This document shows, one piece after another, positions 1 through 3,000 of a stretch of DNA of 26,402 nt. The position numbers were made by a program. How positions within the stretch are numbered: the first letter of the stretch is position 1; the number at the start of each line of letters is the position of its first letter. Source of the stretch: a virus (Duplodnaviria; Heunggongvirae; Uroviricota; Caudoviricetes); IMG/VR virus record IMGVR_UViG_2541047828_000003, positions 1 to 26,402 of that record; one strand, 5' to 3'.

Positions 1-3000
1 ATGATTAACCAACTAACTTTTACAAAACACTATGACACGTTTGATAATGTATCAAAGATTTATTCTGATAAATTCCCTCAAGGAAAAGATTTAGATCTAT
101 TACATATTGTGCTTTATTTTCGATTCCTTAGTTATCAGGAAAACAACCTTAATTGTTATGAAAGTCACGAAACATTAGCTAAGATTTTTAAGTCTTCAGC
201 GTCAACAATTAAACGTAAGATAAACGATCTTAAAGAGATGGGATTATTAGAAACATCCCCACATCCTGATCCGTATATTTCATCTTTGATTTACAATGCT
301 CTCCCTCTCACAGATGCACATATTACTCCCCCAGGAGAATCATCACTCTCTGATCTTTCTGAGGCAGAAGAAGCACAGGAACAACCTAAAGGCCATAAAC
401 AGCCTTCTTTTGATGTTCTTGATGATTGGGATGCGCCTTTACCCTGGGAGACGGAAGAAACACCTGTTTCATCAAATGAAAAAGTAGCTAATGATAATGA
501 GGCATATTTTTCTAAGCATTACCCAAATATATACGATGACTTTGATATTCCATTTTAAAAAGTAAGGAGGACTATTGATACAGTATTTAATAAAAAGCAA
601 AGTAGACAGAATTCAGTGTAATGACACAGGAAAACGCATCTACGAAACACTTGCTTACCTCTATAAAGGAAAGCCAACACCGCTAAAATATAGCGATGTG
701 TTACATCGAGCAGGGTGCTCTGAAGATGGTTTAAAATTCTGGCTGAAACAGCTATCAAACTTCGGTGTTATAGAGATTAAAGAATTATCTTTCTCTACAT
801 TCAATCTCAAAAGACTAAATAGAGAAATAGAATTCATCTATTCCACTCTCTAAAATCTCTCTATGTGATTAAAATATAAAAGGAAAACATTATTATGATA
901 GTAGCTATGTATTGGTTATTGTTCTTTCTCACGTTAGAAACATACTTCGGGGTGTTTTCCTTTAAAAGAAAAGGAAAAATAAATGGCAAAAAGAAAAAAC
1001 AACGTTGTTAAGAAGATCGGTGATTCAGCTTCTCTTCTAAGTAAACCTAAATCTATTCTAAGACGCAAAGACTTTAAAGAGCTAGTTACGCTCTCCAAGC
1101 AAAATAGCGCCCCTGGCGAATGGAATACAGAGATCATAGAACATTCTCCCTCTGTGCCTTGTGGAGATGAATATATCGCATTACAAGAAATCTTATCTTC
1201 AACACCTGGCGTGTTCTGGAAACCTAGAAAAAGAAAAGAGTATATCGTTGACAGCTCTGATTTACGCAAATACCAGATTTTAGGATTTGAAGATTATAAT
1301 CACTACGTTGGTTATCTCGCCACCAATGGCCTAAATAATTTAGTTCCTGAATTCCAAATTTTAGATAATGCAGATCACTATGGAGACTTTTAATATGAAC
1401 AAAAACACGTATGACACAATTTACTCACTAATTAATTATTATGAGGATGATTACCTCCTGCCTTTAAACCGCGCTGAACTTGAAGCATACAAAGAAAACA
1501 CGCCAGCGGCACTAAATGAGGCGTTTAAACACTGGGATTTAGCTGTGAATGCCTTTGAGCACCTCTCTAAGCGTGTAGAGATGCTCTGTAAGCGTGAAAA
1601 CGCATACCTGACAGCCGATCAGATATGGGAGCTATCAAACTGGATAGAAGATATTGAATCTGATGTTCGCTATGTGGGAGATGGCCTTATCGAACTCGCA
1701 CAACGCTTAGGCGCTACTATCACAGAAGAATAAAAAAAGCAACAAAAAAGTTGTAAAATATCTTGACATTTCATATATTGTATGTTAATATAATTATATA
1801 GGGGTGATTATTTTTCCTTTATTGGTTCGATATTAAAAATTCTTCTTGTCGTTAAAGGGGAGTAAAATCTCCGCTCCCCGCTTCTCCTCCTTAAGTAAAT
1901 ACTGTGTCATTATACCTCTTTTTTCCTTTGTTATGCATACATCTTGGAGTGTGCATAACATAGGGTAATTACAAAGGCGGCTTTAAATGCTGCCTTTTAT
2001 TTTGCCCGTTATGCAACTTAAAAGTTGTATTTCTTACTTTAAACAAGGTAACAAGGTTTATATAAATGTTGTTCTTAAATGATAAAGAGCAAATCATCAA
2101 GTATAAAGATGAAATGCTGAAAATTAATCCACAAATTACCGAAATGGTAGCTAAATACGCTGGGTGTTCTGTAGAGGAAGTAGAAAGATGTGTTGAAAAA
2201 TATTTTTCTCCTTCTTCTCCGTCTACACCTTCCCTTAATGAATTAATCAAATTAAAAGCTAAGGAGATTACTAAATGATTATTGATTTAGACACTCTGTT
2301 TCCAGTTCGAAAGACTTTCACAGATATTGTAAGTTATTGTACTGATCCGTTTGCCTCTGTAGAAAGCAAGGTTTTTGCTTCTCTTCCTGCTGATGTTGAG
2401 TGCGGAGACTTGATCACCAGCACTGGCGCTAAATATGAATCAGGAGATGATATCTATGTTGTTATGAGTGAATTTGTAACGGCTGGAGAAAACAAGCCTG
2501 TAGATGTTTTACGTAGCAATGCTGGCCTTGTATGCATCAAAGCTGATGCCCTGAATGCTGTAAGTGAAGCAGCAAAAGCAGCATTAATTAAAAAAGGCTT
2601 CCAGCTTGAAGGGTTCCACTCTGTTTTCACTTCTTAATAAAAGGAATAATAATAAATGATTCTAGGTAATGATTACGTTGATTTAGCTCCTCTGTTCCAG
2701 GCACACAGCACTAGAAACTATCTGCTTTCTACTCTCGACTTCACTGATCCGGTGGGCGTTAGTTCTCATAAAGTAGCTGTTTCCCAGCTTGTCGAAAGCA
2801 ACGAATCTCTCTTTAACAAAGAGACAAGCCGTTTTAGTTCTGAACACAATGTTACTAAGCGAGAACAAGGTAAAGAATGGCTTATTGAAATCCCGTATTT
2901 TCTTCGTGAAGATGTGATTCGTCCTTCTGATGTTCAAGGCAAGCGTAAGCCTGGCACTGATTTTCAGGAAACACTCACTGATATTTATGCTGACTATATC

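Follow-up and report, generated by a model that had tools for sequence, protein, structure and literature searches.

Late gene expression in phage lambda is controlled by the promoter pR′, a Q-binding element, the 194-nt 6S leader RNA and the terminator tR′. The immunity leaders of P4, P1 and N15 (CI, C4 and CA RNAs) combine a constitutive promoter with RNA-induced premature termination. AlpA of Pseudomonas aeruginosa is a small winged-helix protein recognising the promoter DNA element GGGACG-N5-GGTA (PMC7969949, PMC9371919); the element is located between −35 and −10, and terminators at +26 and +247 lie upstream of the PA0807 open reading frame (ORF) (PMC7969949). In the gene-transfer-agent cluster of Caulobacter, the GafZ system has a near-perfect palindrome between −10 and −35, a terminator is bypassed, and the read-through is needed for particles (PMC11150451). 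Here, the leader region of a phage-satellite-like island was analysed in a stretch of 26,402 nucleotides (IMG/VR virus record IMGVR_UViG_2541047828_000003, positions 1 to 26,402; the whole stretch is called the window). The region occupies 1734-2065, from the stop codon of a 112/121-amino-acid (aa) gene to the ATG of a 70-aa gene. The leader is a new variation on a known type of control element, and the island that hosts it seems undescribed.

The window is E. coli chromosome, and its positions 1 to ~8100 are a low-GC island inserted at tRNA-Thr. An original prediction made from the sequence had placed the leader between two operons; these correspond to the early module and the late (capsid) module of the island, which is integrated and satellite-like. 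We propose that the leader acts as a cis-acting gate for the late capsid operon, with a terminated ~205-nt leader as the default and factor-dependent read-through, and assign this reading a probability of about 0.5. The following features would make up the gate.

1739-1755, no strand assigned: palindromic site 1, GCAACAAAAAAGTTGTA, a candidate protein site whose CAAC-N6-GTTG core ends 9 bp before the −35 element.
1763-1791, plus strand: sigma-70 promoter with TTGACA at 1763-1768, a 17-bp spacer, TG at 1783-1784 and TAATAT at 1786-1791.
1798-2004, plus strand: predicted untranslated leader RNA of ~205 nt, from its fold and lack of a conserved ORF.
1973-2004, plus strand: intrinsic terminator AAAGGCGGC-TTTAAAT-GCTGCCTTT (stem 1973-1997), then TATTTTG.
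2013-2029, no strand assigned: palindromic site 2, GCAACTTAAAAGTTGTA, a candidate protein site directly after the terminator, preceded by GTTATGCA at 2008-2015.
2066-3684, plus strand: capsid operon encoding 70-aa and 120-aa proteins of unknown function and a 342-aa major capsid protein of the lambda E family.
3702-3735, plus strand: second intrinsic terminator directly after the capsid gene, −19.6 kcal/mol, ~37 nt from the next ORF.

In this proposal, the strong sigma-70 promoter would start an RNA near the predicted position 1798, and the nascent folded non-coding RNA would end by default at 1973-2004, giving the ~205-nt leader RNA and a silent capsid operon. The leader terminator would also stop read-through from the early genes upstream. 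The capsid gene, and then the tape-measure-like and Dit-like genes behind 3702-3735, would be expressed only by terminator-resistant RNA polymerase. The controlling protein, whether a promoter-loaded antiterminator, a repressor or both, probably binds the DNA at the two CAAC-N6-GTTG palindromes. We infer from the elements the start and end of transcription, default termination, factor-dependent read-through and the identity of the binding protein. The ~205-nt RNA would be the default product of the gate and not necessarily a free-standing small RNA (sRNA).

The proposal is carried by the elements themselves, their conservation, their covariation in relatives, the lack of coding potential and the bracketing palindromes. 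The leader region is clearly functional, beyond chance, given its folding z score, the pattern of variation in E. coli and an architecture conserved in distant relatives. The window sequence alone was weak evidence, since the counts of promoter-like matches (14 in the first 6 kb against 16.2 expected from shuffles, not enriched) and of terminator-like matches (8 against 4.2 expected, reported as not enriched) matched those of shuffles.

Relatives were gathered through capsid homologues, which gave syntenic islands in Klebsiella, Citrobacter, Enterobacter, Cronobacter, Dryocola, Serratia and Sodalis, and ~100 further loci were taken from viral and metagenome collections; a scan of genome contigs with a single capsid protein gave one locus only. 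The 101 loci provided 93 leaders, which were reduced to 40 non-redundant ones from E. coli, Klebsiella, Citrobacter, Enterobacter, Cronobacter, Dryocola and Serratia. Because the cross-lineage leader alignment by MAFFT was unreliable, claims across lineages rest on feature detection and not on alignment. In the relatives, the gap before the operon of ~70-aa, ~120-aa and capsid genes was 450-880 bp, the leader length varied between lineages from ~200 to 900 nt (~205 in the window), and similarity to the window leader was almost nil outside the promoter and a 14-nt tract. As judged from these sequences, the conserved thing is the architecture: a promoter, a structured non-coding RNA and terminator(s), placed immediately before the capsid genes.

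The promoter had a score of 10/12 and was the sole site in the first 6 kb with both this score and an extended −10; it showed the near-consensus hexamers and the 16-18 bp spacer expected of a sigma-70 promoter. The original prediction had paired TTGACA with TATAAT. The first hexamer was confirmed, but the literal TATAAT at 1789-1794 is 20 bp from −35, and TAATAT at 1786-1791 is the likelier −10 because of its 17-bp spacer and TG. Among 31 E. coli leader variants, −35 was unchanged in all 31 and −10 in 29. An equivalent promoter was found in 93 of the 101 related loci, directly behind the upstream stop codon and nearly always as TTGAC(A/T), a spacer of 17 ± 1 bp and TAnnnT or CAnnnT, usually with TG, and one relative lineage had TTGCAT in place of TTGAC(A/T).

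The leader terminator has nine pairs (five G-C), a 7-nt loop and the tail TTTTATTTT, with −13.1 kcal/mol, as expected of an intrinsic terminator; the hairpin and T-tract predicted at 1975-2003 were thus found, mapped here to 1973-2004. Within E. coli its stem did not vary and the sole difference was T/C in the loop; the predicted leader end at 2004 lies 62 nt before the ATG. A terminator within ~80 nt of the first capsid-operon start codon was present in 36/40 non-redundant leaders, compared with 3/200 shuffles, and the relatives' terminators were built on at least nine unrelated stem sequences, indicating that the structure is conserved and the sequence is not. The last terminator lay 28-82 nt from the start codon overall and 28-52 nt from it in several lineages; since a gap of 28-52 nt leaves no room for a promoter and a 5′ untranslated region, the capsid operon must be reached by read-through. 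Two tandem terminator-like hairpins precede the capsid operon in Klebsiella, and in most long leaders a further terminator lies internally, 140-185 nt before the start codon. Terminator-like hairpins with a T-run were also observed in several relatives after the capsid gene, 27-37 nt before the next ORF. The terminator at this position in the window (3702-3735) implies that the tape-measure-like and Dit-like genes also depend on read-through, and it fits processive read-through. With no terminator detected from the early genes to the promoter, shielding of the late genes from early transcription would also fall to the leader terminators.

The RNA between promoter and terminator was analysed for its fold, for which three further features are needed.

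1840-1879, plus strand: pyrimidine tract TTCTTCTTGTCGTT, then the GGGGAGT/GCTCCCC hairpin (1857-1879).
1880-1924, plus strand: C/U-rich, G-poor single-stranded linker with CCTCCTTA (1886-1893), a hot-spot of insertions and deletions (indels) in E. coli copies.
1925-1964, plus strand: long hairpin or inverted repeat CCT-T-TGTTATGCATAC / GTGTGCATAACA-T-AGG with an 8-nt loop.

The plus-strand RNA of 1798-2004 folded to −57.5 kcal/mol (z = −4.97), a value that none of 200 shuffles equalled, compared with z = −3.35 for the minus strand, and the G.U pairs of the terminator and the long hairpin are possible on the plus strand only. Both hairpins described by the original prediction were found where it had placed them: GGGGAG(T) at 1857-1863 pairs with (G)CTCCCC at 1873-1879, and the arms of the 9-bp inverted repeat at 1929-1960 are TGTTATGCA (1929-1937) and TGCATAACA (1952-1960). 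Many E. coli copies have perfect 12-bp arms, TGTTATGCATAC-N8-GTATGCATAACA, and the A-to-G change of the window keeps a G.U pair on the plus strand only. Stem changes among the 31 E. coli variants were limited to one G.U-compatible A/G position and, in a single copy, the outermost pair of the inverted repeat; every indel fell in the two unpaired linkers, and the other substitutions touching hairpins fell in loops.

Similar results were obtained in relatives whose capsids are ~62% identical to that of the window. The named helices could pair in 84.7% of cells, compared with 39-46% in slid controls, and 24 pairs were changed on both sides, compared with 9-13 in controls, a result reached in 0/500 shuffles; RNAalifold gave a similar picture. 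For the composite equivalent of the GGGGAGT/GCTCCCC hairpin in relatives, double-sided changes were found in 9/10 inner pairs and 0/9 outer pairs, so the covariation is in the inner stem only. The 14-nt pyrimidine tract is identical in a Citrobacter leader (L017), where it also precedes a GC-rich hairpin and then CTCC, and at the place of the window's long hairpin relatives have an internal terminator built on TGTTA..TAACA. The sequence GTTATGCA occurs three times in the window, all in the leader region: at 1930-1937 and 1952-1959, in the arms of the long hairpin, and at 2008-2015, where it abuts palindrome 2; three or more matches were seen in 9/100 shuffles, which is not significant alone. 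The linker contains a CTCC(TCC)n tract (1882-1893) that includes CCTCCTTA and differs in repeat number between strains. We take CCTCCTTA to be identical to the 3′ end of 16S rRNA.

No conserved ORF was found in the leader on either strand, in the E. coli copies or the relatives, the indel lengths were not consistently multiples of three, and leader-encoded small proteins were rejected for want of such an ORF. The classical attenuator suggested by the original prediction was not borne out, as there was no conserved leader ORF and no helix competing with the terminator in the minimum-energy or centroid folds. None of the Rfam 15 covariance models, including riboswitches and C4/isrK, matched 1740-2065 at the gathering score; at E up to 10, the matches were at chance level and far below gathering (best E = 0.74), as they were in one relative. 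A LexA box was also rejected, since TACTGT at 1901-1906 lacks a good right half and lies inside the indel-prone linker, and no IHF or RfaH-ops motif was seen by eye in the leader region.

The 17-bp motif GCAACnnAAAAGTTGTA, which was not in the original prediction, had exactly two matches in 26.4 kb, and they bracket the promoter-leader-terminator unit. Site 1 was kept in the E. coli copies, with GAAAC in one of 13. As the palindrome pattern was derived from the two window sites, its test against window shuffles is post hoc; the independent evidence is that from the relatives. A perfect TAAC-N6-GTTA was located upstream of −35 with the same 9-nt gap in 12/40 leaders (0.02 expected), a perfect 4-6-4 palindrome inside the promoter spacer in 9/40 (0.04 expected), and a perfect palindrome between the last terminator and the start codon in 23/40 (0.14 expected). 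Promoter-proximal and downstream palindromes were both present in 18/40, and the motif was essentially absent elsewhere in the 13-kb loci of the relatives. As a candidate factor-binding element of a Q-type cassette, the palindrome ends 9 bp upstream of −35 in the window and inside the spacer in nine of the 40 relatives. The distance from the downstream palindrome to the ATG ranged from 14 to 45 nt among the leaders, and this variation indicates that it is not an activator site of a hidden promoter.

Only the 4-bp arms were consistently symmetric, while the central 6 bp were A- or T-rich in either orientation. In the window lineage, both half-sites had changed together at both sites (TAAC to CAAC and GTTA to GTTG). 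Arm symmetry, A/T centres and paired half-site changes are together better explained by a dimeric DNA-binding protein than by an RNA hairpin. A scan of viral contigs for promoters with a palindrome in the spacer was abandoned, as the pattern was too loose and gave more than 120 unrelated environmental matches. In two E. coli genomes, palindrome 1 is interrupted by a rearrangement breakpoint (L125 3535-3560 and L126 2480-2510, corresponding to window ~1742 and ~1754); both share the 18-bp TATGTGGTGGACCCATAC, and one adjoins an IS481-family transposase whereas the other is joined to a truncated ecpC.

Proteins of the island were searched for the controlling factor. The upstream 112/121-aa protein is predicted to be a three-helix bundle (AlphaFold2, mean predicted local distance difference test (pLDDT) score of 88), and its candidacy as a Q-like protein was ruled out by structure prediction, Foldseek and a PDB profile search. 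The locus has the predicted short terminated leader between promoter and late genes of a Q-type cassette, without a Q-family protein immediately upstream. The 92-aa protein gave PDB profile matches to the ArsR family (E = 5e-4). The ~130-aa protein of the early module (983-1393) has a strongly basic N-terminus, MAKRKNNVVKK..., with GKRERNxLxRIEKAxRAxKRKYS in relatives, which we take to be loosely reminiscent of the arginine-rich motifs of N-type antiterminators. The factor might also come from a helper phage.

Several points weigh against the gate as proposed. No AlpA-, GafZ- or Q-like protein was found among the island proteins by Pfam and PHROG, the Foldseek search of the upstream protein against PDB gave no antiterminator match (best E = 0.16), and the single-sequence model of the 92-aa protein had a low pLDDT of 64 and only generic ArsR/MarR-type winged-helix matches. 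In the window lineage the palindrome is located upstream of −35 and not in the spacer, the site of the AlpA and GafZ elements, and nothing in the Q, AlpA and GafZ systems corresponds to the second palindrome after the terminator. Inspection by eye showed −10-like hexamers early in the transcribed region, both in the window (GATTAT, 1806-1811) and in most relatives; AT-rich sequence often contains them, and no sigma-dependent pause element stood out from this background. A strong promoter might also leak enough transcription past the terminator for no factor to be needed.

The last point is developed in a model of a repressor-controlled late promoter with a constitutive partial terminator and no dedicated antiterminator, which we consider possible but rather unlikely. 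A dimer from the island or a helper would bind both palindromes, possibly with gal/lac-like looping, and shut the promoter or block polymerase past the terminator, and its release would allow a fixed leak. The 4-6-4 palindromes, with A/T-rich centres in either orientation and symmetry confined to the arms, resemble a DNA operator more than an RNA hairpin, they are sited as operators typically are (at about −52 or over the spacer, with another downstream), and a winged-helix protein is encoded in the island. The model also gives the second palindrome a role. However, a terminator before every gene of the operon would have no stoichiometric purpose under it, yet one is present in 36/40 leaders and most long leaders have two, and the palindrome is missing in some lineages that have promoter and terminator (Dryocola, Serratia and many Klebsiella copies).

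A free-standing, trans-acting sRNA of ~205 nt, which might repress the 92-aa regulator of the island, or helper or host mRNAs, through 1880-1924 while the capsid operon is transcribed otherwise, is judged improbable. The strong promoter, intrinsic terminator and stable fold agree with it, and CCUCC motifs recur in the leaders of relatives, sitting in a hairpin loop in the 62% group. Over 31 nt (77%), the segment 1891-1921 can pair with positions 564-594, which hold the Shine-Dalgarno sequence and the TTG start of the 92-aa gene. This is the longest inverted repeat in 8.2 kb, and the duplex of −28 kcal/mol was not equalled in 300 shuffles. However, two target types and two leader types occur among the E. 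coli copies in all four combinations, and the complementarity was found in only 7/35 copies, those with the window-type combination, with the rest at background. As only this combination exceeds background, the pairing was not taken as a conserved function, although it may be a lineage-specific side effect. Also contrary to the sRNA model, indels concentrate chiefly in the pairing segment, lineages differ in leader length (205 to 900 nt) and share almost no leader sequence, no Rfam match was found, and the fixed position and orientation directly before the capsid operon indicate a role in cis. The original prediction had offered a ~200-nt transcript or read-through control; the latter is backed by the comparative data, and the variable leader and unconserved target pairing argue against the former as a free-standing sRNA.

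A DNA element unrelated to transcription (cos/pac, a replication origin, or a switch flanked by the palindromes that inverts or excises) is very improbable, because the AT-rich region (31% G+C) with its repeated motifs, the two tyrosine recombinases of the island (one of ~190 aa) and the two E. coli genomes with insertion sequence (IS)-associated breakpoints inside site 1 are set against the absence of similarity to phage cos regions or other phage DNA, the absence of any inverted or excised variant (in 305/308 carriers, 80% or more of the 1401-bp query aligns at a single place on one strand), and a conserved promoter, terminators and covarying hairpins that it leaves unexplained. A lambda-like cos site had been considered for by-eye resemblances to cosN and terminase-binding (R) sites, which were unsupported by BLAST against 50,697 phage records. 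An invertible switch was rejected, as a single orientation was seen in E. coli genomes and the two short matches examined were IS-associated rearrangements.

The island is ~11-14 kb long and extends left beyond the window (locus L001 6400-20700). It was carried by 308/5426 complete E. coli genomes (~6%), including O26 and O111 Shiga-toxin-producing strains; it was not present in the phage or plasmid collections searched, and no description of it was found in the literature search. It encodes, in order, a replication-initiator-like helix-turn-helix protein, the 92-aa winged-helix protein and the ~130-aa and ~112-aa proteins of unknown function, followed by the leader; thereafter come the 70-aa, 120-aa and lambda-E-type major capsid proteins, a terminator, a 66-aa protein, a tape-measure-like protein of 613 aa, a Dit-like protein and a large integrase. 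The 342-aa capsid protein matched PF03864 (E = 1e-14) and phrog_29, and no portal or terminase gene was found in the island. The island looks like an undescribed type of phage satellite with capsid and tail-related genes. The ~190-aa recombinase is at the far end in most relatives. The genes flanking the leader are marked by two features.

1395-1733, plus strand: upstream gene, the last of the early module, 112 aa by its RefSeq start, with an ORF extendable to 1368 (121 aa).
2053-2068, plus strand: ribosome-binding site AAGG and ATG of the first capsid-operon gene (start codon 2066).

The upstream gene has the same position in all relatives, and its homologues mostly start near 1395 (MNKNTY/MT-NTY); judging by these, the 121-aa ORF from 1368 probably overcalls the N-terminus. 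In the RefSeq record, 2.6 kb of the left part of the island (L001 8326-10941) is without an annotated gene. A second mobile element adjoins the island at window 8261-26402, with an integrase, an excisionase-like gene, an Ant-like anti-repressor and a 919-aa primase, and contains tandem Rfam matches to isrK (11933-12010) and C4 antisense RNA (12073-12160); it resembles a P4-like or phage-inducible chromosomal island (PICI)-like satellite.

The leader is the obvious control point for the structural genes of the island, and identification of the helper phage or the inducing signal would follow from knowing what opens the gate. The few promoter-loaded antiterminators might thereby be joined by another, and the cassette is a compact, naturally insulated expression switch. 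A fuller picture, which we put forward tentatively and hold to be somewhat unlikely in all its parts, is the late switch of an undescribed capsid-encoding satellite family, in which TAAC-N6-GTTA / CAAC-N6-GTTG at the promoter would be the target of a DNA-binding antiterminator, so far unrecognised and encoded by the island or a helper phage, the leader and post-capsid terminators would be overridden, and the second palindrome would add roadblock or looping. Such a layer, if true, is not seen in the Q, AlpA or GafZ systems.

Among the described systems, promoter-loaded processive antitermination as by lambda Q, AlpA and GafZ is favoured, because its signature is seen here: a DNA element lies in or beside a strong promoter and terminators precede the first gene. 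For AlpA and GafZ, the published hallmark is an element placed between −35 and −10 and followed by terminators (PMC7969949, PMC11150451). Like the P4, P1 and N15 immunity leaders, the island leader is satellite- or prophage-borne, has a constitutive-type promoter, and would keep downstream genes off by premature termination in a structured leader, but the Rfam matches to C4 and isrK are located elsewhere (11933-12160) and not in the island leader. Repeated complementarities of the seqA/B/C type were not noted in it, no search aimed at them having been made. The GafZ system also has terminators within a phage-like structural gene cluster; it differs in organism, palindrome sequence and protein family, and the terminator bypassed by GafZ lies after the first gene, whereas that of the island lies before it. 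The AlpA system shares one or two intrinsic terminators between the start and the first ORF, and the palindrome lies in the spacer in several island relatives, but the island has a TAAC/GTTA palindrome instead of GGGACG-N5-GGTA, and it is outside the spacer in the window lineage. With lambda pR′-tR′, the island shares a strong constitutive-type sigma-70 promoter at the early/late boundary, a default terminated leader of ~200 nt, structural genes behind the terminator and further terminators within the late region. Unlike lambda, the upstream protein of the island is not Q-like, the candidate DNA element lies upstream of −35 in the window lineage, a second copy of the element follows the terminator, and there is no sequence similarity to lambdoid phages.

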